A stretch of 64,000 bases of DNA from NCBI GenBank assembly GCA_045105295.1, contig JBGCDK010000105.1:3445-67444 (forward strand). The letters are read 5' to 3'. Under the pieces are notes generated by a model, which saw nothing but the letters and a program-made list of their open reading frames with translations, searched no databases and had not been told where the DNA came from. Numbering within the stretch: the first letter of the stretch is position 1; each line of letters opens with the position of its first letter. The position numbers and the translations under genes were made by a program. This document shows positions 10,955-48,012 of this stretch, piece after piece. The DNA comes from Mariniblastus sp. (GTDB taxonomy: Bacteria; Planctomycetota; Planctomycetia; Pirellulales; Pirellulaceae).

Positions 10955-10961
10955 CGAGAAG

Positions 10962-30027: not shown

Positions 30028-30909
30028 CTATGGCAGGGTCAAGCGATTGGCAAATTTACCCTTTGGCGGTGCACCTACCAAAGCCGGTGCTTTGCCGTCA
30101 TCAGCGTAAAGCGTGCCGTTGCTTCGCATGCCATAAAGCGTGTAGCCATATTGTTTGAGTAGGGCACACATGTCTTCGCGGTTGGTACCACTTCGGCCAA
30201 GTGCTTCGCGATTGGCTTCGGTGATAAAAACTGGTGGGTTGTCACACGTGAGCAGATTCTTTGCGCCTTTGAATGCTTCGTGCTCGAAACCTTCGCAGTC
30301 GACTTTCATTAGTGAAATCTCGCCTTTGTGCTGGGCCAAATCTTCGTCTAGCGTTACGACTTTTACCGTTTCTGTTGTGTTGTTGGCAACGTCGTCGCCT
30401 TCAGTAGCTACATAGCCAAGTGCACTTTCGCGTTCTGGGTCGCCTTCGATGACGAAAGTGACTTCGCCGGGCTCACTGCCGATTGCGACTTCACGAACGG
30501 TGATGTTGTCCATCGCATTCAAAGCGATGTTCTCTTTCAAGATACCAGCAATACGTTTGGCCGGTTCATAGCAAATGTTTTTGGAACTTTTGACTGCCAT
30601 CAAAGTCGCGAACCAACCAAAGTTGGATCCAACATCGACTGTGGTGTCCTCTGGTTTGATGACGGTTGTCATGAAGTTCGTTAGCGACGGTTCGAAAATC
30701 CCGTCGTAGACAACTTGCAAGAACAAGCGGTCCGGGATCATTACGAACTTGCGCCCATCATTGGCAACGACCTCGCCGCCTTTTTCGGATGGCAGCAACG
30801 CCGCGCCGATTTTGCGTTTTAGGTAGCGAGGCAGAACCGCACGCACGCCACTCACGAGCCATGGAACTTTGCGTGTCAGTCCTGCAAATTTTGTGAATAT
30901 ACCAGCCAT
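30028..30909 (-). CDS. FkbM family methyltransferase
   Basis: VDVGSNFGWF, YEP, TLDE, MKVDCEGFE. Confidence 0.9.
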   Translation of the reverse strand: MAGIFTKFAGLTRKVPWLVSGVRAVLPRYLKRKIGAALLPSEKGGEVVANDGRKFVMIPDRLFLQVVYDGIFEPSLTNFMTTVIKPEDTTVDVGSNFGWFATLMAVKSSKNICYEPAKRIAGILKENIALNAMDNITVREVAIGSEPGEVTFVIEGDPERESALGYVATEGDDVANNTTETVKVVTLDEDLAQHKGEISLMKVDCEGFEHEAFKGAKNLLTCDNPPVFITEANREALGRSGTNREDMCALLKQYGYTLYGMRSNGTLYADDGKAPALVGAPPKGKFANRLTLP

Positions 30910-30969
30910 CTTGAACCTCGATCTATCTCGAATAACGCTTTGATTTTGTTGCTTTGGTTCGTGTTGAAC

Positions 30970-31827
30970 CTAGACTGCTTCAGTTTCTTGTTTTGTCTGA
31001 TGCACCCAGTCGCTAGATGACTCGTACCCCAAATCGATCAGTTGCTTGCCACCGTATTCGTTGAATGCTTCTCTGGCTGCTTGATTGAAATGGTTTTTCC
31101 AGTCACCAGCGATACCCTTGCGAATGAAGTTGCCTTTTTGGGTCTGGCCAGGTTTACGACCTGTCAATTTTTCAAAACTGTAGGCCGATATAATGCCCGC
31201 CAGTTTTTCTTGGTCCATTTTTGAACCGGTCAAATGAGTGACCGCGCGGTTCATCGTCCCCGTCGCGTCATCCAACAGGTCTTCATATTTTACTACCAAA
31301 GCGTCCTTATCTTTCCAGGAATCAACGTAGCTTGACCAAGTGCAGCGGTAACTCCACGCCTTCGAGAAATCGGTAAACATGTATTCGATAAACCGAGGTA
31401 GGTTGGTTTCAATATCGTCGTAGTCTTTGAACTGCAGAAAGTTTCGTTTCTTTTCAACGGCGTAGGGCAAGTTCGCGTTGTTGTTAAATAGGAAATGGTA
31501 ATACGACGAAACCATGATGTCCCGGCCATCACGCATGACAACGGAGACGTTGTGAAATCGTTTGCTGTAGAGGAACACGCCGTGCATGATGCACGTTTCA
31601 AATTTTGGTGGGTTGTAATTTCGAGCAAACGGTAGTTCCAAACACTCGGCTAACATTTGGCTATACCACGTGCCACCTGATTTAGGAAATTCAGTGACGA
31701 GATACAGTGGAAGTGACTTTGAAAATCCGTTCCACATCAAAATTCGTTTCACGCCGCGAGCGCGCATCACCCACCGAGATGGGGCTTTCTCGACTTCGAC
31801 AATGTTGGGATTGGCTTTAGTGTTCAT
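30970..31827 (-). CDS. PAPS-dependent sulfotransferase (Sulfotransfer_1)
   Basis: EFPKSGGTW (5'-PSB), RDGRDIMVS (3'-PB), KYEDL, FIRKGIAGDWKNHF. Confidence 0.9.
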   Translation of the reverse strand: MNTKANPNIVEVEKAPSRWVMRARGVKRILMWNGFSKSLPLYLVTEFPKSGGTWYSQMLAECLELPFARNYNPPKFETCIMHGVFLYSKRFHNVSVVMRDGRDIMVSSYYHFLFNNNANLPYAVEKKRNFLQFKDYDDIETNLPRFIEYMFTDFSKAWSYRCTWSSYVDSWKDKDALVVKYEDLLDDATGTMNRAVTHLTGSKMDQEKLAGIISAYSFEKLTGRKPGQTQKGNFIRKGIAGDWKNHFNQAAREAFNEYGGKQLIDLGYESSSDWVHQTKQETEAV

Positions 31828-31854
31828 GGTAATGATGTGTGTTGGGCGAATTTT

Positions 31855-33228
31855 CTAAGCGGTTCGGGGAAGTTTGCTTGATTTCGTGTTCGAGTCAGTC
31901 AATGACTGAGCCAGTTGGTTGATCAAGTTTTTCCAGCGAACCAGCTGCACTTCTTTGACCAAGTGTTGCTGTGCGAATAGCTTGGCTGGCTCTCTCATTG
32001 CTTCAATTTTATCTCGATTGTGATAAGCAGTCAGGATCGTTTCTTTGAGAGCTTCGGGGGCTTCACCACGGCAAGCGTAGCCAAGATTATTTTCGACAGT
32101 CATCTGGTACAGTCGACTCTCCTCTTCAATCACCATCAGCAATGGGCAGCCCATCGCGAGGTAGCTGCTGGTTTTGCAAGGATGAGCAACGCGAAAAACG
32201 TCGGGCATGAGACTCACAATGGCAAGGTCGGCGGCTTGAATGATTTTGTCTGCTACTGCGACCGGCTGATGCGGGTAGAACAAAACGGTTTTACCGTTCA
32301 GATCTCCCGCCATTTCTATCAAGCGTTTCTTTGCGGCTCCTTCGCCCAGAATGACAATCTCAATGTCAGTTTGATCGGCGAGTAACTGCGCCGCACGAAC
32401 GACATTGTCGAGAGCTTGAAACATGCCAACGTTGCCGGCGTAGACCAAGCGAAACTTTCCTGGTGTCCGCTGGAATTCAGAAGGTACTTCGGAAGGCTCG
32501 TTTCCAAAACTGGTCGGGTTAAAGTCACTAATGATGTGCATTTTTTGCTTGGCAGCGTCCAGCCGTGGCGTTACTTGGCCGGCTGCGTCTTTGTAGCGTT
32601 CTAAAAACGTGTTTGCCATGTCTTGCGACAGCACAACGACAGCGTCAGCGGAATCACAGGTTCGACGGTCAAGTGTGCGGGCGATTTTTGCTTTGATGCT
32701 GCCCTTTTTTAGTTTGCCAGTGTAGGTCGAAGACTCTGGATGGATGTCCATGCAATAGTAAACAAATTTTGAGCCACGAAGCTTGGCAGCGGCGCTAAGT
32801 ACAAAACCGGAAATGACAGGCGGAAAAGTCAGCCCCATCACCAGGTCGTACTTCTTTCGTCGAATCACGATGTGACAAAAAGCGAAACTTAAAAACATCA
32901 AAAAATGCATCAGTCGCAACAACGGGTTACGCGACTTTTCAAGTGGCAACCAACAACGCAAAACGTTGAGTTTGCCGACCGTTTGACGAGATGGCTGTCG
33001 CGGAATTTCCACGGTTGGTTTGTAGCATGGTTGGCTGGTGTAAACCGAAACGTCGTGTCCGGCGTCGGCCCAGGAGTCACAGATGGATCGCAGGATCGAT
33101 GCAACGGGGGGCGTGTCTGGCCAAAAATACCGATGAACAACCAGCACGTTCAAGGCGCGCACATCAACGTCGGAAGTTGTGGCACTTCGGAGCGCGGGTT
33201 GATTCGGATCTTGGATTGTTTGTGACAT
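31855..33228 (-). CDS. Glycosyltransferase family 4, WbuB-like
   Basis: YFWPD, T.PP, MDIHPE, YAGNVG..Q.L, PCKTSSYLAMG.P. Confidence 0.88.
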   Translation of the reverse strand: MSQTIQDPNQPALRSATTSDVDVRALNVLVVHRYFWPDTPPVASILRSICDSWADAGHDVSVYTSQPCYKPTVEIPRQPSRQTVGKLNVLRCWLPLEKSRNPLLRLMHFLMFLSFAFCHIVIRRKKYDLVMGLTFPPVISGFVLSAAAKLRGSKFVYYCMDIHPESSTYTGKLKKGSIKAKIARTLDRRTCDSADAVVVLSQDMANTFLERYKDAAGQVTPRLDAAKQKMHIISDFNPTSFGNEPSEVPSEFQRTPGKFRLVYAGNVGMFQALDNVVRAAQLLADQTDIEIVILGEGAAKKRLIEMAGDLNGKTVLFYPHQPVAVADKIIQAADLAIVSLMPDVFRVAHPCKTSSYLAMGCPLLMVIEEESRLYQMTVENNLGYACRGEAPEALKETILTAYHNRDKIEAMREPAKLFAQQHLVKEVQLVRWKNLINQLAQSLTDSNTKSSKLPRTA

Positions 33229-33256
33229 TTTGTGAGAAGATTGAGGTGGGGCTGAC

Positions 33257-34384
33257 TTAGTTGAACTTCTTCCAAGTCGTTCGGTTGATGTAGTTGGTGT
33301 AGCTCAACACGATGCGAGAGACCTTCTTTGAGAAATTGTCGACATCGTAATCAGCAACGACTCGGAACTGGCGATTCTCAAAATCGAATTGGGAAACAAC
33401 GACGTCGATTGAGTGCATGACGTCATCTTTTTTCAAACCCGTCATGATCAACACGCCTTCGTCCATTCCTTCGGGGCGCTCGTGTGCTTGGCGAATGGTG
33501 ATTGCGGGAAAGTTCAGGATGGACGACTCTTCGGTGATCGTGCCGCTATCGGAAATCACACAGTAGGCTTCCATTTGCATTTTGATGTAATCGAAGAATC
33601 CCATTGGTTTCAGGAACTGCACGCGTGGGTCCATATCGTCGCGATTTAGTTGTTCCAGTTTCTTCCGCGTGCGCGGGTGAGTCGAAACAATGACGGGCAT
33701 GTCGTACTTCTGTGTGATTGCGTTGAGCGAATCCAACATGTCATTAAAGTTTTGTTCCGAATCGACGTTCTCTTCGCGGTGAGCGCTGACGATAAAGAAT
33801 TTTTGTTTTTCAACACCCAAACGTGTGAGGATGTCGGACGCTTTGATGTCGTCCATGTTGTGCATCAAGATCTCTTTCATAGGAGACCCCGTTTTCACAA
33901 TAGTGTCTGGACGAATCCCTTCAGCCAAGAGGTAGCGGCGGGCGTGCTCGGTCAACGGCATGTTGATGTCGCTTAAGTGATCAACAATTTTTCGGTTCAA
34001 TTCTTCGGGAACGCGTTGGTCGAAACATCGGTTTCCGGCTTCGAAATGAAACACAGGAATCTTTCGACGTTTGGCCGCGATGACAGCGAGACAACTGTTG
34101 GTGTCACCATAAAGCAAGATCGCATCTGGCTGCTCGATCTCCATCACGTCGTCGGATTTTGCGATCACGGCGCCGATCGTGTGGGCGACGCTTTTGCCGG
34201 CTACTTCGAGAAAGTGATCTGGTTTGGGAACACCGAGGTTCTCGAAAAAGACTTCATTCAATTCGTAGTCATAGTTCTGGCCGGTGTGAACCAGCACATG
34301 GTCGACAAATTTTTCAAGCTCGGCAATGACGCGACTTAGTTTGATAATCTCTGGGCGCGTGCCCACAATGGTCATGACTTTCAT
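33257..34384 (-). CDS. Non-hydrolysing UDP-sugar 2-epimerase, FnlC/QnlB (WbjD/Cap5G)-type
   Basis: GTRPEIIKLS, HTGQNYDYELNEVFF, EAGNRCFDQRVPEE, SDSGTITEESS, RQAHERPEG. Confidence 0.9.
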   Translation of the reverse strand: MKVMTIVGTRPEIIKLSRVIAELEKFVDHVLVHTGQNYDYELNEVFFENLGVPKPDHFLEVAGKSVAHTIGAVIAKSDDVMEIEQPDAILLYGDTNSCLAVIAAKRRKIPVFHFEAGNRCFDQRVPEELNRKIVDHLSDINMPLTEHARRYLLAEGIRPDTIVKTGSPMKEILMHNMDDIKASDILTRLGVEKQKFFIVSAHREENVDSEQNFNDMLDSLNAITQKYDMPVIVSTHPRTRKKLEQLNRDDMDPRVQFLKPMGFFDYIKMQMEAYCVISDSGTITEESSILNFPAITIRQAHERPEGMDEGVLIMTGLKKDDVMHSIDVVVSQFDFENRQFRVVADYDVDNFSKKVSRIVLSYTNYINRTTWKKFN

Positions 34385-34522
34385 TGAATCTCTCTCGGAT
34401 GTTTGGCAGCCGTTGGTAGTTGGCTGAAGTAACGTGGTTTAGGGTTGTAAATTTTTCATCGCGCAAAACGACACAGACGCCGTCGACGATAGTCAGTCAG
34501 CCGAATAGTGGCTGGGTTTTGT

Positions 34523-35659
34523 TTATTGGTTCAGCGAATCAATCAAGGCTTCGGAAGTGTACGCAATTTGCTCTTCGGTCAGCCCAATCCAAGTCGGCAA
34601 GCAGATGCCGCGGTGGAAACACTCGACTGAGTTCGGGAACTCAACACTGTCGTAGCCGAGATGTTCGTAGCACGGCTGCTGATGGAGCGGGTAAAACACA
34701 CTTCGCGGTTCGATCCCACGGGCACCCATGTAGTCCATTGTTTTCTGCGCGTCGTCAACGAAAACAATGACACGGAATGGAATGTGTTGGAAATCGTCTC
34801 GAAGTTTCAAGAATTCGACGTGATCGGATAAATGTTCACGATACAGCCGATAGATTTTTTGCTTTTCCGTGATAATGTGATCGAGCTTGCTTAGTTGTGA
34901 ACAACCAAGCGCAGCTTGCATGTCGGTGATGCGAAAGTTGTACCCAATCTCGGGATGCACAAATGTGCCGCTGCGAATGCGGCCTTGGTTTCGCATGTAA
35001 ACCATTTTGTCGTAAACCTCTTGGTGAGGTGTCACAATAAATCCGCCTTCGGCTGTGGTTATCGTTTTGTCTGCGTAAAACGAAAATGTCCCAACGTCGC
35101 CGTAGGTGCCTAGGTGTTTCGTGCCATTGGTGACGGCAAGGGATTGGGCAGCGTCTTCGACCAACAACAAATTGTTGTCGTCACAGAACTGTTTGACCTC
35201 TTCGATGTTGCTACACGCGGTGCCGAACAAATGCGCGATCACCATGCCTTTTGTTTTCGGCGTGAGTTTGATCTTGCTCAGGTCGATCGTCATGTCGTCG
35301 TAGGACGGAATGTCGACAAACACTGGAGTCGCACCAGCCATTTCCACCGCATTGGCAGACGCAATAAAGGTAACGTTCTGCACTAGCATTTCGTCGCCAG
35401 CACCGATGCCTAGAGCCTTGAGTGCGAGATAGATGGCCAGTGTTCCATTGCATGCGAACACGCCGTGCGGGCTGCCGATAATTTCCAACAGCTCACTGTG
35501 GAATCGTTTGGCGAATGGACCTTCGGCGATGTAGTTGTTTTCGAAAACGGGCGCGATGAAATCGTAATCGCTTTTGTCGACGAAAGATCGAAACTGCGGC
35601 ACGTGCATTTTTGGTTTAACATCACTTGAATTGTCAGCTGGAATTTTGTCTGTGGCCAT
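34523..35659 (-). CDS. DegT/DnrJ/EryC1/StrS aminotransferase
   Basis: CNGTLA, EDAAQS, SFYADKTITTAEGG, GYNFRITDMQAALG. Confidence 0.92.
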   Translation of the reverse strand: MATDKIPADNSSDVKPKMHVPQFRSFVDKSDYDFIAPVFENNYIAEGPFAKRFHSELLEIIGSPHGVFACNGTLAIYLALKALGIGAGDEMLVQNVTFIASANAVEMAGATPVFVDIPSYDDMTIDLSKIKLTPKTKGMVIAHLFGTACSNIEEVKQFCDDNNLLLVEDAAQSLAVTNGTKHLGTYGDVGTFSFYADKTITTAEGGFIVTPHQEVYDKMVYMRNQGRIRSGTFVHPEIGYNFRITDMQAALGCSQLSKLDHIITEKQKIYRLYREHLSDHVEFLKLRDDFQHIPFRVIVFVDDAQKTMDYMGARGIEPRSVFYPLHQQPCYEHLGYDSVEFPNSVECFHRGICLPTWIGLTEEQIAYTSEALIDSLNQ

Positions 35660-35711
35660 GGTGCACTCGTTATTGACGAGGAGAAAGGAAAAGTCTGTTT
35701 CAGGGATTGGT

Positions 35712-36599
35712 CTAACGTTTGATTTTGTCGTAGAGAGTTTCGCTTGCCAGTTCGGCGAGCATCTCTTGCCATGAAGGCACTGTGAGTTTCATTTTGTCTC
35801 GAAGCAAAGTCCCGTTCAGCGAAGCCTTGCATACGAAGTCCGACTCGGGAACAATCTCAACATCCATTTTGAATGCGTCACGTGCGAGGCACAGTAAATC
35901 GAATTTGGAAATGGCTTCGGGGGACGACAGTTGGTGGAGACCGTTGATGTCGGGATGCGATTCAATGATGTCGCCAACAACCTTGCTCATCACGATCGTG
36001 GAAACGCCTGTGTAAAGTGCGTTTGTGAATCCCTTGATCGTTTTGCCGTTTTGCTGCAAAAACCATTCGAGCAACTCGGAAAACACGTCGAGTTCACGTC
36101 CGATGAAACTGGAGCGGATCGTTAGCGAATGGTCGTATCGAATTTCGCCAAGTGCTTTTGTTTGGCCGTATTCATCTTCTGCAGTTGTGATGCTTTGCTC
36201 GTCGTAGTCGCCTTTGGTTCCATCAAAAACACAATCGGTACTAAAGTGAATCACTCTCGCGTTGTTTTTCAGGCCCCAGTCTGCAAGTCGATGCGGCAAC
36301 AATGCGTTGACCGTGATCGCCTCAAGTGGAACCTTAACCTCAGGCCGACGTTTTGTGATGCCGACGCAGTTGAGGACGACGTCGGGGGAAACGCTATGCA
36401 TGATGCCGCGGAGTTTGTCAAAATCGTGAACGTCAACGTTGTCGATAATCCGATCGGTTTCGAACAAGCCGGTATCTGCGAAACAGTTGCGAGAACGATG
36501 CAGCGTGCCGAAAACCGTGCCGAATCGTTCGGACAATAGTTCAAAGAGTTTGTGCCCGATCAAGCCGGAAGCACCAAGAATTAAAATGCGTTTTCCCAA
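35712..36599 (-). CDS. RmlD-like NAD(P)H-dependent sugar 4-reductase (QnlA/WbvR-like)
   Basis: GASGLIG, NCVG, STDCVFDG, YGQTKALGE. Confidence 0.85.
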   Translation of the reverse strand: MGKRILILGASGLIGHKLFELLSERFGTVFGTLHRSRNCFADTGLFETDRIIDNVDVHDFDKLRGIMHSVSPDVVLNCVGITKRRPEVKVPLEAITVNALLPHRLADWGLKNNARVIHFSTDCVFDGTKGDYDEQSITTAEDEYGQTKALGEIRYDHSLTIRSSFIGRELDVFSELLEWFLQQNGKTIKGFTNALYTGVSTIVMSKVVGDIIESHPDINGLHQLSSPEAISKFDLLCLARDAFKMDVEIVPESDFVCKASLNGTLLRDKMKLTVPSWQEMLAELASETLYDKIKR

Positions 36600-36729
36600 A
36601 GTTCAGTACTCTTTTTTCAATGTTTAGGTTTTGAGTGGATCGAGTGGAGATCGCTTGCTCGAGAAAGGTCTGAATAGAGCAAGCAGAAATCATTTGCAAG
36701 ATCTTCGGCTTGTACTCGGAACTGAAAGC

Positions 36730-37764
36730 CTACGCAGAAGCCGTAATTCCCAACTCGGTTTTGATCTCCGGAAGTGACAACAGGAGTTCCTTTGTCTCTT
36801 CAACGTTCAACATTTTTCCGCTGTCCGATGCGTAGTCTTGAGTCGCGTCAAGTTCCGGATCGCCTTGAGTGAAGTATTTTGAATAATCAAGATCCCGTTC
36901 GTCCATTGAGATCCGGAAGAAATCACCCATGTCCTCGGCGCGACGAAGTTCTTCTGCACTGGCGAGTACTTCATGAAGTTTCTCGCCATGGCGTGTTCCG
37001 ATATGGTGAACGTCGACTGTGCTTTCGAATAATTCTTTCAAAGCAACGACGAGGGTATCGATCGTGCATGCGACAGCTTTCTTGATGAAAATGTCGCCTT
37101 GTTGTGCGTTAGTGAACGCGAATTGGACCAGTTCAACTGATTGGCTGAGCGGTAACATAAATCGAGTCATGCGCGGGTCGGTCACGGTGATCGCGGAGTT
37201 TTCTTTGATCTGGCGAATGAACAGTGGAATCACTGATCCGCGGGAGTACATCACATTACCGTAACGAACTGAGCAGACTTTTGTGTCGGATTTCTTGAGA
37301 CGCCGCGCGAAAGATTGAGCGACTTTTTCCATCAATGCCTTGGTCATGCCCATCGTGTTGACGGGATAGACGGCTTTGTCTGTTCCGAGGCAAACGCAGC
37401 AATCGACTTTATGGTTCACGGCTGCGTCAACAACGTTAAAACTGCCTGTCACGTTGGTCGCGACGGCTTCCATCGGGAAGAACTCGCACGACGGAACTTG
37501 CTTGAGTGCGGCAGCGTGGAAGACAAGGTTAACGCCCTCCATCGCCGAATCGATGCTGGACTTGTTACGAATGTCGCCGATGTAAAACTTAAGACGTGGA
37601 TTGGCAAGACGAACACGCATGTCTTCTTGTTTCCATTCGTCGCGGCTAAAAATTCGGATCTCGCCAAACCCTTGCTTTAACAAATGCATGACCATTGTTT
37701 TTCCGAAGGAGCCGGTGCCGCCGGTGATGAGAACAGTTTTATTTGAGTTGTCAGTTGTAGTCAT
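36730..37764 (-). CDS. fnlA: UDP-GlcNAc 4,6-dehydratase/5-epimerase, FnlA/WbjB/Cap5E-type
   Basis: GGTGSFG, HAAALKQVPSCEFFPMEA, DKAVYPVNTMG..KALMEK, RYGNVMYSRGSVIP, RHGEKLHE. Confidence 0.88.
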   Translation of the reverse strand: MTTTDNSNKTVLITGGTGSFGKTMVMHLLKQGFGEIRIFSRDEWKQEDMRVRLANPRLKFYIGDIRNKSSIDSAMEGVNLVFHAAALKQVPSCEFFPMEAVATNVTGSFNVVDAAVNHKVDCCVCLGTDKAVYPVNTMGMTKALMEKVAQSFARRLKKSDTKVCSVRYGNVMYSRGSVIPLFIRQIKENSAITVTDPRMTRFMLPLSQSVELVQFAFTNAQQGDIFIKKAVACTIDTLVVALKELFESTVDVHHIGTRHGEKLHEVLASAEELRRAEDMGDFFRISMDERDLDYSKYFTQGDPELDATQDYASDSGKMLNVEETKELLLSLPEIKTELGITASA

Positions 37765-37978
37765 TGAAGTGTCTCGAAATCGTGATCGCGTACAGCGAAA
37801 CCAAAAAATGGAAGGCAAGTTGAATTGCCAACGGAAAACCGTGGTGGGTGGACAGTCGCTCAGGACGAGCGATTTTATTGTGAATGGTGGGTGAGGGGTA
37901 GGTTCTATCGTAATCAGGAAAAAAAAGTGTGGGTTGAGAAATTGAAACAGCTTCGCGATGTGGACATTTCAGTTCTTG

Positions 37979-39247
37979 CTATTTGGCAAGTCGAGGGTGT
38001 CCAAATTTTGAAAAGTAACCCAGCAAAAACCACATCACGCACGCGGTGAAAGCTTGGGTAAAGTACAGCTGAGTCAAGCAGCCCAACGCGGCGAAGACGA
38101 GAATAGCAGACCAGGCTTGAAACAATAATTGTTGATCGTGAGAAACAAGCGGCTTGTATCGGTTGGCGCGAACAAATGAGATGCCAAGCAACGCGACGAA
38201 GGAAAGCATTCCAACAAGCCCGCCTTTGAGTCCAAAATCTAAAAATTGATTGTGTGGTAGGTAGAGTTTGGGAACCGCAAAGGCTTTACCGCCGGAAGTC
38301 TCGGCTCGCTCTGGGACAAACATGCGGCCAACAATCGGGCTTTCTCCGATGAAAGTAATTGCCTCCATGGCGTAGTGGGCCCGGTTTCCATCACCTTGCT
38401 GGCGACCTTTTACGTTGCCTACTCGTTTTGCAATTACTGTTTTTTGAAAAAGACTGTCATCACTTGTGTCGCCCATCTGCGAGAGCACGAAGAGCGTACC
38501 GGCACAGGCGAGAAGGACGATGCCAAACGATGGCTTCTTGTTTCGAAACATCACAACGACCAAGAACATCACCCACCCCGTTCGTGACCAGTTGATGATC
38601 ATGAAAGCGACGTGTGCGAGTATCGCGCCCCAGTACAGTTGCTTGTTTCTAAAGGATTGACCAACGAATAAAACAAATGCGAATGAAAGTGCGAGTGTAA
38701 ACGGGAAGTAGTTTCGGAACTGCGGTAGCACCATTGAGAGTTTTTGAATGTCCTTGATCAGGTTGCCAAAATTCAATCCCGAGATTCGCAACAACATCAA
38801 AAATGCGAAAGGGATGAAGATGGAAACGCCAATGACGAGTAAGCGTACGCCTTTATCGACCATGGCTTGATCGACCAAACGATGGGCCCCGAAAAAGAAG
38901 CACAGGATTGGCAAAATCGCCTGGCAATAATAAATGACGTTGAGCTTTCCTGGCTTCAACAGCATCCCGGTGATCATCGATATAGAAAAACTGAGAAGCA
39001 GGACCAGAACACAGATCGCTTCGCTGGTCAGATTGATTTCCAGTTTGGGTAGCGTGACAATGATTGACCAACCGACAGCAACGATCGCAAGGAGAGCGAC
39101 CAAATGAATTGACAGCCCCGACTCCCATGCCGCGAACGACGATTCGCTACCGATGGCAGCATCGATCAAATTCAATCGCATCGTCGATGGATTGATAAAG
39201 ATCGGTACCGCCGAGAGGGCGAATAAAAGATAGACAAGCTGACGCAT
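37979..39247 (-). CDS. Wzy-type polymerase / O-antigen ligase family membrane protein
   Basis: Multiple TM helices; SRTG, GNRAHY, PHNQFLD..LKGGLVG; directly after the flippase. Confidence 0.75.
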   Translation of the reverse strand: MRQLVYLLFALSAVPIFINPSTMRLNLIDAAIGSESSFAAWESGLSIHLVALLAIVAVGWSIIVTLPKLEINLTSEAICVLVLLLSFSISMITGMLLKPGKLNVIYYCQAILPILCFFFGAHRLVDQAMVDKGVRLLVIGVSIFIPFAFLMLLRISGLNFGNLIKDIQKLSMVLPQFRNYFPFTLALSFAFVLFVGQSFRNKQLYWGAILAHVAFMIINWSRTGWVMFLVVVMFRNKKPSFGIVLLACAGTLFVLSQMGDTSDDSLFQKTVIAKRVGNVKGRQQGDGNRAHYAMEAITFIGESPIVGRMFVPERAETSGGKAFAVPKLYLPHNQFLDFGLKGGLVGMLSFVALLGISFVRANRYKPLVSHDQQLLFQAWSAILVFAALGCLTQLYFTQAFTACVMWFLLGYFSKFGHPRLAK

Positions 39248-39254
39248 TGGAAAT

Positions 39255-40748
39255 CTATAAAGACAGTTTGAAGCGCGACAATCGGAATCCGATTTGCAAT
39301 TGCCGCTGATCGTTAAGTTCGAATTTGAAAAGTGTTAGGAGTGGGAAAGCCAACATCAACGACAGTCGCACAATGAATGTCCAATCCCAGATTTGGCTGG
39401 GGAGGAAAAGCACAGAGCATGCAATGGCTGCCGAAAGGAGCAGGATCAAACCGTTGGTTCGAGTCTGCCAATGGATTTCTTTTTGAAACGACACCAGAAC
39501 AAACATCGTAGTTGCCATGCAGACATAAGTAATTACTGTCGCGATGGCAGAGCCCATGATTCCCAATTGGGGAATTAAACAAAGGTTACAACCGATGTTA
39601 ACCGCAAAACCGAAACCGGAAGCCATCGCAATCAAGCCTGTTCGTCGCTGGTATAAAAGCGGCTGGTTGAAAGCCATGAATCCTGAGAGAGCCACAATGC
39701 CGACCAGAACGACTCGGAAAACGTGGATCGAATCGGTGTAGTCTTTTCCTGTGCCCATTTTGATCAGACTCAGCAATTCTGGAATGAATAGTATCCCCGC
39801 TGTTGCAGTGAAAAGGATCAAGTAGAAGTAGATCGTCGCAAATTTTCCATACTGCTGACCAGCATCGGGTTCGTCGGCCGTTCGAAAGTATCGAGGCATC
39901 CACGCAGCACGAATTCCCATGATCACGATTGAAAGAAATCCAGCCAGCGAATACCCGATCTCATACACACCCAGTTCTGATTTTGTTACATATTCCTGAA
40001 GCATCAATCGGTCGGCGCTCATCACCGCCCACATGAAAAATGCGTGAGGAAGAGTCGGCCAGCAATAGAATCCAATCTCGCGCCAGTTGAAACCAGCAAT
40101 AGTTGGCAGCGAGCGGCGAAAGAGCAGTACACCACTGATTACCGTCCATCCAGCGAACGAAATCGTTTCGCCTATGATGGCTCCAAATAAGCCCCACTTG
40201 CACCAGGATACGAGATAGATGACCAGCAAGGTTGTGGTGAGGAATTGTAAAAACGTAAACGCGCGGTATTTGAAGGGCTCTTCACGAATGTTCAGCCAGG
40301 ATTCAACGATGTTCGTGCCGCCACGTAAGAATCCAGTTGTAATCGCACAGGCAATTAAGCCAAACGAAATCGGATTGGATGACCATTGTTGCAATCCGTA
40401 ACCAGCCAGTAACAACAGTCCGAACAATGGCAGCCCTGCCAACATCCGCCCGACCCAAAACGTCGTAACGAGGGAGTCACCGTTTTCACCGTATTGATTG
40501 TGGAATCGCCGGGTCGCGAATCCCAAGCCGAACGTCAGCAGTGTAAAACTGGCGATCGATATCGCTTGAAGGATTCCCCATTCGCCCATTTCGGGTTTTG
40601 TGAAAACTGCGATGTAGTACGGAATCAATACGATGCGAGCGCCTTTGGTCAGCAGATCGCCCAACGCATAGATCAGCGAACTGCCGAGAAAGCTTGGTCG
40701 TTTTTTCTTGGGTTTGATTTCGTTTGCACTTAGATCGTTGGAGCTCAT
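39255..40748 (-). CDS. wzx: Wzx-type oligosaccharide flippase
   Basis: About 14 TM helices; ADRLML....ELGVYEIGY pattern. Confidence 0.85.
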   Translation of the reverse strand: MSSNDLSANEIKPKKKRPSFLGSSLIYALGDLLTKGARIVLIPYYIAVFTKPEMGEWGILQAISIASFTLLTFGLGFATRRFHNQYGENGDSLVTTFWVGRMLAGLPLFGLLLLAGYGLQQWSSNPISFGLIACAITTGFLRGGTNIVESWLNIREEPFKYRAFTFLQFLTTTLLVIYLVSWCKWGLFGAIIGETISFAGWTVISGVLLFRRSLPTIAGFNWREIGFYCWPTLPHAFFMWAVMSADRLMLQEYVTKSELGVYEIGYSLAGFLSIVIMGIRAAWMPRYFRTADEPDAGQQYGKFATIYFYLILFTATAGILFIPELLSLIKMGTGKDYTDSIHVFRVVLVGIVALSGFMAFNQPLLYQRRTGLIAMASGFGFAVNIGCNLCLIPQLGIMGSAIATVITYVCMATTMFVLVSFQKEIHWQTRTNGLILLLSAAIACSVLFLPSQIWDWTFIVRLSLMLAFPLLTLFKFELNDQRQLQIGFRLSRFKLSL

Positions 40749-41398
40749 GGCGTTGTGCTCGACGAAGTTGATCCAGTCGAAGTCCGCTCCGTATCGGATG
40801 CGCCACCGATTCCCAGCACGCTAACAATTGTCAGCCAAATGAGTTTGACATCGAAAAGGACCGACGATTTTTCCACGTACTGTTTCGCAAGTTTGATTTT
40901 CGCTGGTGCGACTTCATTCAAGTAAGCAGCTTGCGGATCCGCGGCTTGCGCGAGAATGTCTTCCTCGTGCCGGAACGCAATCGAATCAAGCCCGGTGATC
41001 CCTGGCCTGACCGAAAGCATGACTTTGTAGTCTTCGCGGAAAATTTCAACGTACTTTGGAACTTCTGGACGTGGGCCGACGAAACTCATGTCACCGAATA
41101 GAACATTGAACAACTGCGGTAGTTCGTCCAGTTTCGTCTTTCGCATGATCCGACCGATTCCGGTAATTCTTGGATCGCGATCCACGGTGACTTGGGCTCC
41201 CAAGTTTGGTGCGTCGACAACCATGGAACGAAATTTGAAAATTCGAAAAGGCTTGAAATTCAACCCAACACGTTCTTGGCTGAAAATGACTGGGCCTTTG
41301 GAAGTCAGTTTGACAACGACGGCGCATATCAACATCGGTAGCAGGAAGATAGCAATCCCAACCAAAGCCAAACCAATGTCAAACAGCCGCTTGGTCAC
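40745..41398 (-). CDS. Initiating phosphoglycosyl transferase (bacterial sugar transferase)
   Basis: KRLFDI, FKFRSM, DPRITGIGRIMRKTKLDELPQL, VGPRPE, VRPGITG. Confidence 0.93.
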   Translation of the reverse strand: MTKRLFDIGLALVGIAIFLLPMLICAVVVKLTSKGPVIFSQERVGLNFKPFRIFKFRSMVVDAPNLGAQVTVDRDPRITGIGRIMRKTKLDELPQLFNVLFGDMSFVGPRPEVPKYVEIFREDYKVMLSVRPGITGLDSIAFRHEEDILAQAADPQAAYLNEVAPAKIKLAKQYVEKSSVLFDVKLIWLTIVSVLGIGGASDTERTSTGSTSSSTTP

Positions 41399-42570
41399 TT
41401 TTGGTTTGCCTCGCCAATGCGATTGACGTTACTGATCACGTAATTCATTTGCTCGTCGGTCATGCCGGGAAACAAGGGGACCGATATGATTTGCTCGTAA
41501 ATTCTACTAGCCGTTGGCATGCTTTCAAGTGTGTACCCGTATCGGTCTCGGTATAACGGGTGTAGGTGCAGCGGTGTGTAATGAACGCTCGTGCTGACGC
41601 CTGAAGCGTTTAGTTGCTCAATGAATTGCCCGCGATCAATGGTGAGGTTCTGCTGGTTAATCTTGATGACGAACAAATGCCATGAATGATCAACGTGAGG
41701 TTGGACTTCTAACGTGGTGACGAATGGTGATCCATCAAAGGCTTCGGTGTAAGCCAACGCGATCCGCTTTCTTTCAACGCAGAATTTTTCGGCTTGATGA
41801 AGCTGGCCAATTCCGATTGCAGCAGCAACATCGGAAAGGTTGTACTTGAAACCTGCTTCGAGGATTTCGTAGAACCATTTTCCATTTTTTGAAAACCGAT
41901 TCCATGCGCCGCGATCAAGCCCGTGCAGGCTCATGATTCGCATGCGGTTTGCAACCGCTTCGTCGTCTGTGGTGATCATTCCACCTTCGCCGGTCGTGAT
42001 CGTTTTGTTGGCGTAAAATGAGAAACAGCTGACGTTGCTCGATGATCCAATCGTTCGACCACGGTATTTTGCTGGGAACGCATGGGCGGCGTCTTCGACG
42101 ATTCCAAGGCCGTGCTGTTTTGCGACGGCTTCAATCTCGTCCATCTCACAAGGGTGACCTGCGTAGTGGACGGGCATGACGGCTTTTGTTTTTGAGGTAA
42201 TTTTCGCAATCATGTCATCGACGTCGATGTTGAAATCGCCTTCGCGGCAATCAACGAGAACAGGAGTTGCGCCAAGATGAATGACGACTTCTGCGGTGGC
42301 GGCAAACGTCAGCGTTGGGACTAGAACTTCATCGCCCGGTCCAACACCAAGTGCTTCTAATGCGAGGTGCAATCCCGCAGTGGCACTGTTGACCGCGATC
42401 GCGAATTTGGCTCCTACCATTTCGGCAAATTCTTGCTCGAACTGCTTGGCCTTTGGCCCCGAGGTGAGCCAGCCGGACTTAAGCGTTTCGATGACGCTGT
42501 CGATTTCTTCTTGTCCGATTTGGGCTTTGAAGAATGGAATTTCCATTTCGACGTTTGTTTTTTGGATCAT
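41395..42570 (-). CDS. DegT/DnrJ/EryC1/StrS aminotransferase
   Basis: SGWLTSGP, NSATAGLH, EDAAHA, SFYANKTITTGEGG, GFKYNLSD; start at MIQKTN chosen. Confidence 0.93.
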   Translation of the reverse strand: MIQKTNVEMEIPFFKAQIGQEEIDSVIETLKSGWLTSGPKAKQFEQEFAEMVGAKFAIAVNSATAGLHLALEALGVGPGDEVLVPTLTFAATAEVVIHLGATPVLVDCREGDFNIDVDDMIAKITSKTKAVMPVHYAGHPCEMDEIEAVAKQHGLGIVEDAAHAFPAKYRGRTIGSSSNVSCFSFYANKTITTGEGGMITTDDEAVANRMRIMSLHGLDRGAWNRFSKNGKWFYEILEAGFKYNLSDVAAAIGIGQLHQAEKFCVERKRIALAYTEAFDGSPFVTTLEVQPHVDHSWHLFVIKINQQNLTIDRGQFIEQLNASGVSTSVHYTPLHLHPLYRDRYGYTLESMPTASRIYEQIISVPLFPGMTDEQMNYVISNVNRIGEANQK

Positions 42571-42571
42571 T

Positions 42572-43504
42572 TCAAGACCACCATTCTCTAAGGTCGGGGA
42601 TTCTCGTTTTGAGCAATTCGATTTGGTTTTCAATTATCGAACGTGAGTCAGAATCGAGGAGATGCCGAATTCCTGGTTTCGCCGACGTGGCTGTTTCAGA
42701 TTTTTCGCCGCCTGCGTTGTTTTCACTATACAGCAAACGCTTAATTAATTTTGATTGGTGGAGCCGAGTAAGCAAACCGTTTGCGCCCATGCGACGTAGC
42801 AAAAATGAAGTGCTGGTGGCAGCTCTGGCAAGCAATTTTGATTTGGGTGTGATCGCTGAATTGATTACTTCTTCAGCGCCTTCGGGTTGATAGGTTGCGT
42901 CGACGCCAAGGAATTCAAAGACTTCCTCCAAGACTTGGGAATGTTCGTTGCTCAACCGTTCGACAACGAATAGGTAGATTTGGTCGGATGGGAAGAGTTC
43001 AAAGAACGGCTTTAGGCGGTCCTCGAGGCAAACGCTTTCGAGCAAAGTCGCATCGTCGCAAGTCGTAAGTTCGCCGCGTTTTTTTCGATGCGAGTAACCG
43101 GATCCCATGATTGGGCCAATTGGTTCGTTTAAGCAGTTTCCAATTTCGCCAATCTCAAGACCACGTCGGATTCCAAAAGAGTGAAATGATTTCAACAGGT
43201 CGAATGGATCGCGCACGTTGATGATCAATTTTAAATTGGGATCGTAGGCTTTGATGGCCGACGCAATTTCTGGCGAAAGGTAGTAGTTGGCTGAGAACTC
43301 GCCGATGGCTTTAGCGGCAGATTCATCGCTGGGTTGTTCGAACTGCGATTCGTACCAATCCTGACCGTTGGCCAAGTTTGTGTTGAAGTACTCAGTCTCT
43401 TTGACTTTCGACAGCGCGATCTCGGGGTGTGATTGCAAAAGTTGGAACAGCCAACTGGTCGCGCACCTCCCCGGTCCAATATTGATAAAAGTCGGTTTGG
43501 GCAT
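42572..43504 (-). CDS. PAPS-dependent sulfotransferase
   Basis: IGPGRCATSWL..LL.SHPEI, KETEYF, WYESQF, GEFSANY, RDP..LLKS. Confidence 0.85.
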   Translation of the reverse strand: MPKPTFINIGPGRCATSWLFQLLQSHPEIALSKVKETEYFNTNLANGQDWYESQFEQPSDESAAKAIGEFSANYYLSPEIASAIKAYDPNLKLIINVRDPFDLLKSFHSFGIRRGLEIGEIGNCLNEPIGPIMGSGYSHRKKRGELTTCDDATLLESVCLEDRLKPFFELFPSDQIYLFVVERLSNEHSQVLEEVFEFLGVDATYQPEGAEEVINSAITPKSKLLARAATSTSFLLRRMGANGLLTRLHQSKLIKRLLYSENNAGGEKSETATSAKPGIRHLLDSDSRSIIENQIELLKTRIPDLREWWS

Positions 43505-43514
43505 GTCTAAAAAC

Positions 43515-45446
43515 TCAAGTCGCGATCTTTACCGAACGATTTCCTTTTCGTTCTGGCGATTTGAATTCCGGGACGAGGCTCTCCAACGCCGTCATGATTT
43601 TTTCTGGTGAGGAGTAGGCCACGTCGCGCAACATCGAGACAGCGGAGTCCATTTCCTCAAGCGAGTAAAACCGATGGTATGCCGACAAGATTTTTTCGTG
43701 GCTGGTCGGAATCGATTGCTCTTCTTCGTAGTAAAGTTCTTCGTAGAGTTTCTCGCCTGGACGAGATCCAGTGTATTCGATGTCGATGGAATCAGCGGCC
43801 AATCCAGCCAGGCGAATCAGGTCTCGGGCCATGTCCTCGATTCGAACGGGTTCCCCCATTTCAAGCACAAAAATTTCGCTGCCTTTGCCCATCGACGCCG
43901 CCTGCAGCACCAATTGCGAAGCTTCAGGAATGGTCATGAAGAATCGAGTCATGCGAGGGTCAGTGATCGTAATAGGACCACCAGCTCGAATTTGCTCTTG
44001 GAACAATGGCACCACGCTTCCAGCAGATCCTAGAACGTTCCCGAAACGAGTCGTAATAAACTTGGTCTCAGAGACGGTTCCTTTGGCCAAGCAATATCGC
44101 TCAGCCAAGTGTTTCGTGCAGCCCATGACGCTGGTCGGATTGACGGCCTTGTCAGTTGAGATCAAAACAAATTTTTCGACACCAACTTGAGCCGCATTGT
44201 CCGCGAGGATTTTGGTTCCGCCGATATTATTAAGTACCGCTTCGCCAATGTTTTGCTCTGAAAGTGGAACGTGTTTGTGAGCCGCAGCATGAAAGACGAC
44301 TTGGGGGCGATAGGTCGAAAACAACTCTTCCATTCGTCGCTCATCTGTCATGCTCGCGATTCGTGGAGTGATTTTTAAACCAGGAGTTTGTTTTCGAAGC
44401 TCTCGTTCGATATGGAAAATTCTATTTTCGCCACGACCTAAAAGAATCAATTCCTCGGGTGCAAATTTTGCAAGCTGACGACAAAGTTCAGACCCAATGC
44501 TTCCGCCGGCTCCGGTGACCAAGACACGTTTGCCTCGAATCAAACTGGCGATCAAATCAAGATCCAGTCTTGCTGGCTCGCGACGCAAGAGGTCCTCGAA
44601 TTGGACTTCTCGGATTGGCATTTGATCATTACCGCGAAGCTGCTGCTCCAAGCCGGGAACGATTCGTACGTCGACTTCGGCTTCGGAAGCTGAGTCGAGC
44701 AACGCGCGAAGCTGTCTGGCTGGAACGGTTCCGTTTGCAAGGAACACAGTCTTGGCGCGATACGTTTTCGCGATTTCTTTCAAGTCTTCCAGCGAACCAA
44801 CTACGCGGAGGTCACTAAAACGACGGGTTTTGTCTAAACGTTTAGGCGAGACGAGTCCAACGATTCGGAATCCGAGACCTTGTTGAGAGTTGATTAAGTG
44901 CGCAAGTTTTGCTGACTCCATCTCTGCACCAATGATCAGGGCAGCATCGCGAGATTTTCTACCTCGATCCAATGGAGCAATTCTTTCGTCCCAAACGCGC
45001 CAGAATGATCGCAAGGTTCCCAGTGCAACAACACTGAGCACCCAATCGAAAACCAGTACCGATCGCGGAATTTGATAAGGCAATACGAAGTGGTCGATCG
45101 CAATGATCAACAACATCGATGCGGTCGAGGCTCGGATGAGCGAAATGAAATCGGAGAACGTTACGTAACGCCACCAGCCGTGAAAGTTTCTCAGGGCGTA
45201 ATAGACGCAGACCTTAACGCCGACAACTAGCGGCAGGCCCGCCCAGAATTTTTTCCAAACTTGGTCTACGTTGATTGGAAAGTCGACGTCTAATCGGATG
45301 AGGAAAGCGCCAAGGAATACGAGACCAAAGACGACCGCATGGCCAAGCACGAGAAGTGGCAAACGATGGTCTTTGGCGAAGTTAACTGTTTTGGTGAGAG
45401 TACTCTCACGAACCGGGTGATCGGTTGTGTTTAAGTCAGGATGCAT
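43515..45446 (-). CDS. Membrane-bound UDP-GlcNAc 4,6-dehydratase, CapD/PglF/WbpM-type
   Basis: N-terminal TM helices; TGAGGSIGSE, HAAAHKHVP, STDKAVNPTSVMG.TK, RFGNVLGSAGSV, RPGEKLYEEL. Confidence 0.93.
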   Translation of the reverse strand: MHPDLNTTDHPVRESTLTKTVNFAKDHRLPLLVLGHAVVFGLVFLGAFLIRLDVDFPINVDQVWKKFWAGLPLVVGVKVCVYYALRNFHGWWRYVTFSDFISLIRASTASMLLIIAIDHFVLPYQIPRSVLVFDWVLSVVALGTLRSFWRVWDERIAPLDRGRKSRDAALIIGAEMESAKLAHLINSQQGLGFRIVGLVSPKRLDKTRRFSDLRVVGSLEDLKEIAKTYRAKTVFLANGTVPARQLRALLDSASEAEVDVRIVPGLEQQLRGNDQMPIREVQFEDLLRREPARLDLDLIASLIRGKRVLVTGAGGSIGSELCRQLAKFAPEELILLGRGENRIFHIERELRKQTPGLKITPRIASMTDERRMEELFSTYRPQVVFHAAAHKHVPLSEQNIGEAVLNNIGGTKILADNAAQVGVEKFVLISTDKAVNPTSVMGCTKHLAERYCLAKGTVSETKFITTRFGNVLGSAGSVVPLFQEQIRAGGPITITDPRMTRFFMTIPEASQLVLQAASMGKGSEIFVLEMGEPVRIEDMARDLIRLAGLAADSIDIEYTGSRPGEKLYEELYYEEEQSIPTSHEKILSAYHRFYSLEEMDSAVSMLRDVAYSSPEKIMTALESLVPEFKSPERKGNRSVKIAT

Positions 45447-47961: not shown

Positions 47962-48012
47962 GGTGTGAACCTCAGGAGTTTACGCTTGGTGTGTTTAGGG
48001 GTTAGGAAAAGT

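Follow-up and report, generated by a model that had tools for sequence, protein, structure and literature searches.

A two-cassette Wzx/Wzy locus with two predicted sulfotransferases in the planctomycete Mariniblastus sp.

What might a planctomycete build with two sulfotransferases, two sugar aminotransferases and a methyltransferase, all encoded in a single run of polysaccharide-assembly genes? Work on planctomycetes treats them as consumers of sulfated algal glycans. The run that raises the question lies on the minus strand at positions 30028-45446 of a 64,000-nucleotide (nt) stretch of contig JBGCDK010000105.1 of Mariniblastus sp. (family Pirellulaceae), referred to here as the window. Its gene content, motifs, predicted folds, synteny with related loci and the genes that supply 3′-phosphoadenosine 5′-phosphosulfate (PAPS) are described below, and from these we propose identities for the sugars, sites for the sulfates and a fate for the polymer. 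The locus is probably the core of a pathway for a Wzx/Wzy-dependent, Wza/Wzc-exported surface polysaccharide built from two sugar cassettes, each of which carries its own sulfotransferase.

The run is composed of 13 consecutive co-oriented open reading frames (ORFs; 45446-30028), which are separated by gaps of at most 160 nt and whose domains were assigned with Pfam and NCBIfam (Table 1). Three junctions within it overlap or nearly abut, and the first six genes, from that of the CapD-like dehydratase to wzy, are closely coupled: the sulfotransferase gene ST2 starts 10 nt past the end of the CapD gene, the likely ATG of the aminotransferase gene DegT_A (42570) lies 1 nt past the ST2 stop, and the genes for the initiating transferase and Wzx each overlap the end of the preceding gene by 4 nt. 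All of the genes listed in an earlier reading of this DNA (the original prediction) are present in this co-oriented run, together with a family 4 glycosyltransferase (GT4) that the reading had omitted. The full Wzx/Wzy system that it claimed is also borne out: the initiating transferase, Wzx and Wzy are encoded within the run, and an outer-membrane polysaccharide export (OPX) protein and a polysaccharide co-polymerase (PCP) with a bacterial tyrosine (BY) kinase domain are encoded alongside, a complement that would place the locus among those with Wzx/Wzy-dependent assembly. The profile scores of Wzx and Wzy both barely exceed their cut-offs. The transmembrane (TM) segments counted in a hydropathy scan match the roles assigned to Wzx, Wzy, the CapD-like enzyme and the Wzc-like protein, and in the same scan the initiating transferase has one N-terminal TM segment and a second hydrophobic stretch near its C-terminus.

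The whole gene order is kept at 79–95% amino acid identity (82% for Wzx) in two metagenome-assembled genomes (MAGs) labelled ‘uncultured Pirellulaceae bacterium’ (loci L004 and L005), and the two halves of the run recur as cassettes elsewhere, so the run is more than a chance assemblage. Composition gives no sign of recent horizontal transfer, the GC fraction being flat (0.48–0.50) across the locus and its flanks. Promoter and terminator scans returned counts equal to or below shuffled expectation and were uninformative on the limits of the operon.

Twenty related loci from genomes and metagenomes, 15 of them with ST2, were compared to delineate the first cassette (A). It is made up of a CapD/PglF-like dehydratase, ST2, the ArnB/Spr1654-like aminotransferase DegT_A and the PglC-like initiating transferase, a small polyprenyl-phosphate sugar-1-phosphate transferase (PGT). 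The dehydratase is 85% identical in L004 and L005, and its gene stands directly before ST2 in most related loci examined. ST2 adjoins the initiating-transferase gene, or is separated from it by a DegT gene only, in 15 of the 15 ST2-bearing loci, one of which (L006) is from a Nitrospirota MAG. The order ST2, DegT, PGT of the window is found in seven loci, and the full order CapD, ST2, DegT_A, PGT recurs in L004, L005, L009, L013 and L021; L017 has ST2, DegT and PGT, with no CapD gene within the stretch retrieved. ST2 directly abuts the small PGT gene in L006, L014 and L018. The aminotransferase is replaced in L010, L011, L015, L019 and L020 by a short-chain dehydrogenase/reductase (SDR) fused to the transferase, and in these loci the 4-keto group is presumably reduced. 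Gene neighbourhood thus assigns ST2, as a predicted enzyme, to the first-sugar module; it is not strictly tied to an amine, since it is kept where C4 would be reduced and not aminated (L010, L011, L015, L018–L020). Two of the loci have unusual contents. L017, a metagenome contig, carries four sulfotransferases, a hexapeptide transferase and a polysaccharide deacetylase, and has an FkbM gene directly upstream of its ST2-DegT-PGT block. L020 is a minimal variant consisting of CapD, ST2, the SDR-PGT fusion, Wzx, Wzy and ST1, with no glycosyltransferase (GT) near the core and no OPX gene nearby; its organism is evidently abundant, because the locus was read on 25 contigs and the index lists 50 blocks.

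ST2 shares its fold and its motif layout, GxxK/RxGT(T/S)...HP(D/E)...(K)E..FF...R(D/N)P..(R/L)..S, with animal heparan sulfate (HS) sulfotransferases (the NDST domain and 3-OST-1/3/5). The motifs GPGRCATSW, KETEYF and R98-P100-S106 are invariant in 23 homologues, and an invariant KETE(Y/F)F is kept where the general-base Glu of the HS sulfotransferases sits. The best fold matches of its AlphaFold2 (AF2) model (mean predicted local distance difference test score, pLDDT, 86) are a bacterial sulfotransferase (3RNL), the NDST1 sulfotransferase domain and HS 3-OSTs, at probability 1.00, and glycosaminoglycan sulfotransferases outrank all small-molecule enzymes among the matches. The model therefore assigns ST2 with confidence, at the level of fold, to the glycan-type sulfotransferases of the HS class. 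It differs from the animal enzymes in its low identity (~20%), in an Arg in place of the usual Lys in the 5′-phosphosulfate-binding (5′-PSB) loop and in an extra basic helical C-terminal region (220–260). A role for these helices in membrane binding was considered and set aside, the evidence being weak (hydrophobic moment, muH, 0.54 for one helix; net charge +8). The animal enzymes act on finished polymer, whereas ST2 is predicted to be cytoplasmic, with a nucleotide- or lipid-linked monosaccharide as its probable substrate. In the ST2 tree, two supported clades comprise the sequences whose loci have an aminotransferase, and those beside the reductase-PGT fusion lie outside them. An attempt to read N- or O-specificity from sequence found a single separating column (Cys159 versus Leu/Met), and no conclusion was drawn from it.

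DegT_A has its catalytic Lys (SFYANK), and its nearest solved relatives are ArnB (307 bits) and the AATGal-forming Spr1654 of Streptococcus pneumoniae (6EWJ, 244 bits; AATGal, 2-acetamido-4-amino-2,4,6-trideoxygalactose), with PglE at 130 bits. A membrane 4,6-dehydratase, a 4-aminotransferase and a small PGT are encoded together, as in the initiating modules for bacillosamine and AATGal. The block is shared with PglF/PglE/PglD/PglC of Campylobacter jejuni (bacillosamine) and with the AATGal modules WbgZ/X/Y of Shigella sonnei and Plesiomonas O17, WcfR/WcfS of Bacteroides fragilis PSA and Spr1654 of S. pneumoniae. In the bacillosamine operon the additional tailoring enzyme is the acetyltransferase PglD, whereas cassette A has a PAPS sulfotransferase between the dehydratase and the aminotransferase. 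Domain searches found no N-acetyltransferase gene in the 64-kb window, neither of the hexapeptide nor of the GNAT type, and hence no PglD-type enzyme of the di-N-acetylbacillosamine branch; the acetyltransferase of the related locus L013 is of the LacA/Maa O-acetyl type. The AATGal systems likewise have no N-acetyltransferase and are the basis of zwitterionic polysaccharides. Cassette A would accordingly belong either to the AATGal branch, with its free amine, or to a new branch with N-modification. We know of no characterised bacillosamine or AATGal initiating module with a sulfotransferase, and a literature search turned up none.

The second cassette (B) consists of a CapE/FnlA-type dehydratase, an RmlD-like reductase, the aminotransferase DegT_B, a 2-epimerase, the GT4, the sulfotransferase ST1 and the FkbM methyltransferase. 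The probable start of the FnlA-type enzyme is Met19 of the listed ORF, and its MGMTK motif has Met in place of the Tyr of the catalytic triad; it is 71% identical to the FnlA of the canonical FnlABC sets in L010, and its score against the FnlA model TIGR04130, 418 bits against an equivalog cut-off of 730, indicates membership at the level of the family and not of the equivalog. The RmlD-like reductase retains GASGLIGH and YGQTK and has RmlD reductases as its nearest solved structures. DegT_B has the pyridoxal phosphate (PLP)-binding catalytic Lys (SFYADK), and its nearest solved relatives are GDP-perosamine synthase (207 bits) and PglE (164 bits). The block of RmlD-like reductase, DegT_B and 2-epimerase is 60–79% identical in L018, L022, L023, L024 and L026 (60–68% for the reductase), and across cassette-B loci the identities are 66–85% for DegT_B and 76–79% for the 2-epimerase. 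This trio is usually preceded by an FnlA-type gene and followed by GT4, ST1 and FkbM, and L024 repeats the window order from 36599 to 30028 exactly. The FkbM protein is 94% identical in L004 and L005, and its gene adjoins ST1 in L023, L024 and L025 also; it has a weak match to RfbT and no solved relative among structures. In L022 the RmlD-like gene (6435-7380) is split into ORFs of 120 and 198 amino acids, a possible inactivating change. In L023 two sulfatase genes (18436-20807) lie ~2 kb downstream of the cassette-B cluster, after one DUF5722 gene, and the synthesis and removal of sulfate esters would there be encoded close together.

The original prediction had taken the sugar enzymes of this cassette for an FnlA-type triad. 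The FnlA-type dehydratase and the 2-epimerase stand. The slot of the FnlB/CapF-type bifunctional reductase (~370 amino acids), which is missing from the block, is held by a 295-residue RmlD_sub_bind protein, and the conserved DegT_B is inserted between reductase and epimerase, so the block departs from FnlA/FnlB/FnlC. The relatives L010 and L019, by comparison, have an FnlB-like gene of 366–374 amino acids in the reductase slot, and with it the canonical FnlA/FnlB/FnlC set. The pairing of a CapD-type D-sugar dehydratase with a CapE/FnlA-type route to an L-6-deoxy-N-acetylhexosamine (HexNAc) is that of Staphylococcus aureus cap5/cap8 and Pseudomonas aeruginosa O11 (CapD/WbpM with CapE-F-G/WbjB-C-D, equivalent to FnlA-B-C), and the MGMTK-triad enzyme, a 4-reductase, a 2-epimerase and a WbuB-like GT4 that adds the L-sugar are common to these systems and the window. 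The short reductase of the window, however, resembles WbvR (Vibrio cholerae O37 WbvB/WbvR/WbvD) and not CapF/FnlB. On this gene content the canonical L-FucNAc route is evidently not what the locus encodes. A conserved, Lys-bearing aminotransferase between reductase and epimerase argues that the product is not plain L-FucNAc, L-QuiNAc or L-RhaNAc, and the block of four enzymes matches no route known to us. Two further assignments were rejected. DegT_B as a 3-dehydratase of the ColD/E1 type, which would explain the reductase, is out, as the PLP Lys is present and aminotransferases score far above ColD; the 2-epimerase as a hydrolysing NeuC/LegG in a nonulosonic-acid route is out, as it exceeds the cut-off of the WecB model and scores just 87 bits with NeuC. 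No NeuB-like synthase is encoded in the window.

ST1, which follows Wzy or GT4 in every locus examined, has the family-invariant motifs PKSGGTW, RDGRDIMVS and RKGIAGDWKNHF, which are the PAPS-binding signatures of cytosolic sulfotransferases (SULTs); PKSGGTW, RDGRDIMVS and RKGIAGDW are unchanged in 20 homologues. Its AF2 model (pLDDT 85) has its best fold matches in cytosolic SULTs (SULT2B1, SULT1C and SULT1E1; probability 1.00). The models thus place ST1 and ST2 confidently in sulfotransferase folds of two different classes and, with the PAPS motifs kept in both, agree with the original prediction of two different PAPS-dependent sulfotransferases. Most ST1 homologues have the sequence ...GH(H)LYS... 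fifteen residues ahead of RDGRD. The His in this column corresponds to the SULT catalytic His as judged by motif spacing and flanking similarity, HMMER having left the segment unaligned; in the window ST1 the column is occupied by Val84 (IMHGVFLY), which the model places directly after strand 80–83, with His82 two residues upstream. Among the window ST1 and its 120 best homologues, Val, Thr or Ala is found at column 84 in 36 of the 121 sequences and His in the rest, and the His-less sequences form essentially one clade, requiring two parsimony changes.

Every His-less ST1 whose neighbouring genes could be read stands beside the RmlD-like/DegT_B/epimerase trio, namely those of the window, L018, L022, L023, L024 and L026. 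Another His-less ST1 (P0087) is on the same contig as L009, and that of L025 is on a contig too short to show its context. The His is retained in all 15 ST1s whose loci or genomes lack the trio; L010 and L019 have the His-bearing type. A blind prediction was correct: genome G523, the sole carrier of a DegT_B orthologue among 13 further genomes, has an ST1 with the sequence ILHGVYRY. As the clade has a single origin, this link counts as one evolutionary association and not as 21 independent events. G523 has cassette B with ST1 and lacks ST2, which argues that the two sulfotransferases belong to separate modules. The ST1 of genome G491 (C67:15504-16334) has an in-frame TGA, a possible inactivating change.

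The substitution at column 84 may reflect another acceptor, another base (His82) or lowered activity. The equivalent His, as equated here from motif spacing and the model, is essential in cytosolic SULTs, and its replacement throughout what is essentially one clade would suit a subfamily that is catalytically impaired or that has taken another role, such as PAPS/PAP binding or scaffolding, leaving the polymer with one sulfate only. We consider this unlikely: all three PAPS-binding motifs are invariant though the subfamily has diverged to ~50% identity, which argues for retained PAPS-dependent activity, His82 on the same strand could substitute, and the stable link to one sugar pathway suggests that the subfamily adapted to a new acceptor instead of decaying. 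Both enzymes acting on a lipid, a small molecule or protein tyrosine, and lying in the locus for regulatory or historical reasons, would be very surprising. The closest solved relatives of ST1 do sulfate steroids and phenols, and glycolipids or lipo-oligosaccharides are the substrates of the known bacterial sulfotransferases NodH and Stf0 (PMC11625862), but each sulfotransferase is tied to one sugar cassette over 20 loci and at least two phyla, with overlapping or nearly abutting junctions. ST2, moreover, is closer to the glycosaminoglycan sulfotransferases than to any small-molecule enzyme, and domain searches found no lipid or secondary-metabolite genes within the 13-gene run.

Taken as sulfotransferases of the polysaccharide, the two enzymes can be set in a pathway. 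CapD would convert UDP-GlcNAc to UDP-4-keto-6-deoxy-GlcNAc, and DegT_A would aminate C4. The resulting sugar would be a 2-acetamido-4-amino-2,4,6-trideoxyhexose, with the AATGal/FucNAc4N type the likeliest; DegT_A is nearer to ArnB and Spr1654 than to PglE and there is no PglD-type acetyltransferase in the window, which makes an AATGal-type first sugar probable. The PglC-like enzyme would move this sugar as its 1-phosphate onto undecaprenyl phosphate, and ST2, translationally coupled between the dehydratase and the aminotransferase, would sulfate the sugar or its lipid-linked form. The FnlA-type, RmlD-like, DegT_B and 2-epimerase proteins would make the second sugar, for which the MGMTK triad and the identity to the L010 FnlA suggest an L-configured 6-deoxy-HexNAc derivative. 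The single GT4, the only GT besides the initiating transferase found by domain searches in the window, would join it to the first sugar, with ST1 sulfating and FkbM methylating the second. ST1, ST2 and FkbM have no TM segment in the hydropathy scan and no signal peptide, so sulfation and methylation would take place in the cytoplasm, before flipping by Wzx. Wzx would then flip the disaccharide unit, Wzy polymerise it and Wzc/Wza export the product, with the modifications fed by SAM (S-adenosylmethionine) and by PAPS from CysD, CysNC and CysC. The most likely product, as far as the encoded proteins indicate, is a disaccharide-repeat polymer whose sulfates and methyl group would be added in the cytoplasm. 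As the window encodes no N-acetyltransferase, amines may stay free, and the polymer may hence be zwitterionic.

The genes for this PAPS supply, a matter that the original prediction had raised, are present in the same genome: contig C60 carries cysD and a cysN-cysC fusion, C94 has a separate cysC, and C41 has a cysH-like gene. They are permissive and not diagnostic, being common in bacteria. Four more Sulfotransfer_1 genes lie outside the window, on contigs C21, C92, C124 and C93.

Several points weigh against this reconstruction. Few genomes have the locus in its sulfotransferase-bearing form, with ST2 found in 5 of 251 Pirellulaceae species genomes (3 of 126 genera) and in 2 of 301 genomes sampled across the phylum. 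The host is an uncultured MAG, known here from its genes alone. ST1 has Val at the His column, and its nearest solved structures are small-molecule SULTs. The product of cassette B cannot be named, since the reductase and DegT_B both require a 4-keto group. Finally, three modifying enzymes would have to share the roughly two free O or N positions of a disaccharide made of two 6-deoxy amino sugars. The shortfall would be explained by modification of an amine, by partial or terminal modification, or by a GT or sugar encoded elsewhere.

The first of these explanations leads to a more specific proposal, which we put forward tentatively and regard as doubtful: at least one of the sulfotransferases would N-sulfate the 4-amino group of the 2-acetamido-4-amino-2,4,6-trideoxyhexose to a sulfamate, at the nucleotide- or lipid-linked stage. 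It is equally conjectural that N-sulfation would thereby take the place that N-acetylation has in the bacillosamine pathway. With a single GT the unit would be a disaccharide whose first sugar has just O3 and N4 available, O3 being needed for the glycosidic bond, and no N-acetyltransferase is encoded to occupy the amine. The fold class of ST2 includes the heparan N-sulfotransferase, and ST2 is locked to the initiating module; the ST1 clade, for its part, has no general-base His, a loss that coincides exactly with the entry of a second aminotransferase into the pathway. If true, this would yield a bacterial amino-sugar polymer that is N-sulfated, possibly N-sulfo/N-methyl. The exopolymers of Pontiella, a relative within the Planctomycetes–Verrucomicrobia–Chlamydiae (PVC) group, have been reported to be mostly N-sulfated, and its cluster has a sulfotransferase and a 4-aminotransferase (PMC7356697).

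Sulfotransferase-bearing Wzx/Wzy loci are already known in other bacteria, and the novelty implied by the original prediction was too high, as loci with two sulfotransferases have been published from Synechocystis (PMC8205485) and, with a methyltransferase, from Actinoplanes (PMC13390465). The synechan (xss) locus of Synechocystis sp. PCC 6803 resembles that of the window in being a Wzx/Wzy-type exopolysaccharide (EPS) locus with a PCP, an OPX protein and two sulfotransferases of different subfamilies. Synechan is chemically proven to be sulfated, sulfation is proposed to take place on the cytoplasmic repeat unit, and cells deleted for the sulfotransferase gene xssA neither accumulate EPS nor form blooms (Maeda et al. 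2021, PMC8205485). The xss locus has eight GTs for an octasaccharide unit of neutral hexoses and rhamnose, with no amino-sugar pathway, aminotransferase or methyltransferase, whereas the window, from another phylum, has one GT, two aminotransferases, two 4,6-dehydratases and FkbM, and each of its sulfotransferases is embedded in a sugar-specific cassette. The wps-1 locus of Actinoplanes missouriensis has Wzx/Wzy/Wzz, two sulfotransferases of different families (one of heparan-sulfate type) and a SAM methyltransferase, as the window does, and its sulfated product is predicted, not demonstrated (PMC13390465, 2026). It differs in its Gram-positive host, its GH26 hydrolase and its kinase-like protein, and lacks both a CapD/DegT/PglC initiating module and a CapE-type L-sugar cassette. 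What appears distinctive in Mariniblastus is a sulfotransferase built into the initiating amino-sugar module, an L-sugar cassette with a His-less sulfotransferase and a single GT. LpsS is among the very few bacterial carbohydrate sulfotransferases with a known acceptor. A review names NodH, KpsS of Mesorhizobium loti and Stf0 (PMC11625862).

The genes flanking the run bear on the destination of the polymer. The OPX protein is 84% identical in L004 and L005 and its gene keeps its position in L009, L011 and L015. The Wzc-like gene adjoins the locus in L004, L005, L009–L011, L014, L015 and L019–L021, and the Wzy_C-TPR gene is kept beside it in L004, L005, L009–L011, L013–L015, L019–L021 and L023. 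At least one homologue of the small CarboxypepD_reg-like secreted proteins is in place in L004, L005, L009, L011, L013–L015, L020 and L021. This near-constant company would suit a different end for the same chemistry, in which the Wzy_C-TPR protein ligates the glycan to lipid A-core, in the manner of an O-antigen, or to the small secreted proteins (47362-48827). The PglF/PglE/PglC-like initiating module points the same way, being that used by the protein glycosylation systems of Campylobacter and Neisseria. We regard ligation as possible and lean against it. A dedicated Wzy, a Wzc-type BY-kinase and a Wza-type OPX protein are hallmarks of an exported high-molecular-weight polymer, and with six Wzy_C proteins in the whole genome the ligase cannot be assigned to this locus. 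The two fates are also not exclusive, as the repeat unit of Escherichia coli group 1 capsules is ligated to lipid A-core too. Elsewhere in the window, a gene at 13716-15194 (minus strand) encodes an HTTM domain (263 bits) with a vitamin-K-dependent gamma-carboxylase lumenal domain (125 bits), here in a planctomycete. A methenyl-tetrahydromethanopterin cyclohydrolase (MCH, 359 bits) gene overlaps a RimK-like ATP-grasp gene (10022-12044, minus strand), and the pair looks like part of a tetrahydromethanopterin (H4MPT)-linked one-carbon (C1) module.

Table 1 Predicted genes of the run and its export neighbourhood (window positions; aa, amino acids)
Feature	Position	Strand	Evidence
CapD/PglF/WbpM-like UDP-GlcNAc 4,6-dehydratase, 643 aa	43515..45446	-	Polysacc_synt_2 380 bits + CoA_binding_3 N-domain; 4 N-terminal TM
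ST2, heparan-sulfate-type PAPS sulfotransferase (predicted), 310 aa, soluble	42572..43504	-	Sulfotransfer_1 33 bits (cut-off 22)
DegT_A, sugar 4-aminotransferase	41395..42570	-	DegT_DnrJ_EryC1 437 bits; longer TTG ORF reaches 42633
Small PglC-type polyprenyl-phosphate sugar-1-phosphate transferase, 217 aa	40745..41398	-	Bac_transf 204 bits; TIGR03025 235 bits over catalytic domain
Wzx flippase, 497 aa, HfsF-like	39255..40748	-	Polysacc_synt_3 23.6 bits (cut-off 23); ~11 TM
Wzy polymerase, 422 aa	37979..39247	-	Wzy_C 35.4 bits (cut-off 31.7); ~10 TM
CapE/FnlA-type UDP-GlcNAc 4,6-dehydratase/5-epimerase	36730..37818	-	Polysacc_synt_2 319 bits + Polysacc_syn_2C 59 bits; MGMTK triad
RmlD-like 4-ketoreductase, 295 aa	35712..36599	-	RmlD_sub_bind 83 bits
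DegT_B, second sugar aminotransferase, 378 aa	34523..35659	-	DegT 293 bits
WecB-type non-hydrolysing UDP-HexNAc 2-epimerase, 375 aa	33257..34384	-	Epimerase_2 311 bits; TIGR00236 249 bits (cut-off 210)
GT4 glycosyltransferase, 457 aa	31855..33228	-	Glyco_trans_4_4 + Glycos_transf_1; WcaI-family model 121 bits, under its cut-off
ST1, SULT-like PAPS sulfotransferase (predicted), 285 aa	30970..31827	-	Sulfotransfer_1 72 bits
FkbM-family SAM methyltransferase, 293 aa, final gene of run	30028..30909	-	TIGR01444 89.9 bits (cut-off 37.7); PF05050 Methyltransf_21 58.5 bits (cut-off 22.7)
OPX (Wza-like) outer-membrane polysaccharide export protein	45779..47047	-	Poly_export 46 bits (cut-off 28); immediately upstream of run
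Two small secreted paralogues	47362-47961, 48150-48827		Weak CarboxypepD_reg domain; between OPX gene and divergent Wzy_C-TPR gene
Wzy_C-family membrane protein with TPR tail, 907 aa, candidate ligase for finished glycan	48990..51713	+	Wzy_C 63 bits + TPR repeats
PCP-2a/BY-kinase (Wzc-like) co-polymerase, 769 aa	51794..54103	+	Wzz domain + P-loop AAA_31/ParA domain; 2 TM

The ST1 family, present in 14 of the 251 Pirellulaceae genomes, is on the same contig as ST2 in all five ST2 carriers. A related locus is held by the complete genome of strain K23_9 (CP036526), listed in the same family. The culture of this strain, provisionally named ‘Stieleria marina’, no longer exists (PMC12254169), and it is the one isolate in which such a locus is seen. 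A literature search found no paper on a sulfotransferase-bearing Wzx/Wzy locus in Planctomycetota.

The locus offers two portable units, an initiating-sugar cassette with a heparan-type sulfotransferase and an L-sugar cassette with a His-less SULT-like sulfotransferase and FkbM. The synthesis of sulfated glycans would profit from enzymes able to sulfate defined amino sugars linked to UDP or to lipid, and if the amine is the acceptor the reaction would be new in bacteria. For the family, the prediction from this locus is that some members are also producers of a sulfated surface polymer, and such a polymer, if made, would bear on adhesion, on interactions with phages and grazers, and on marine sulfur–carbon cycling.

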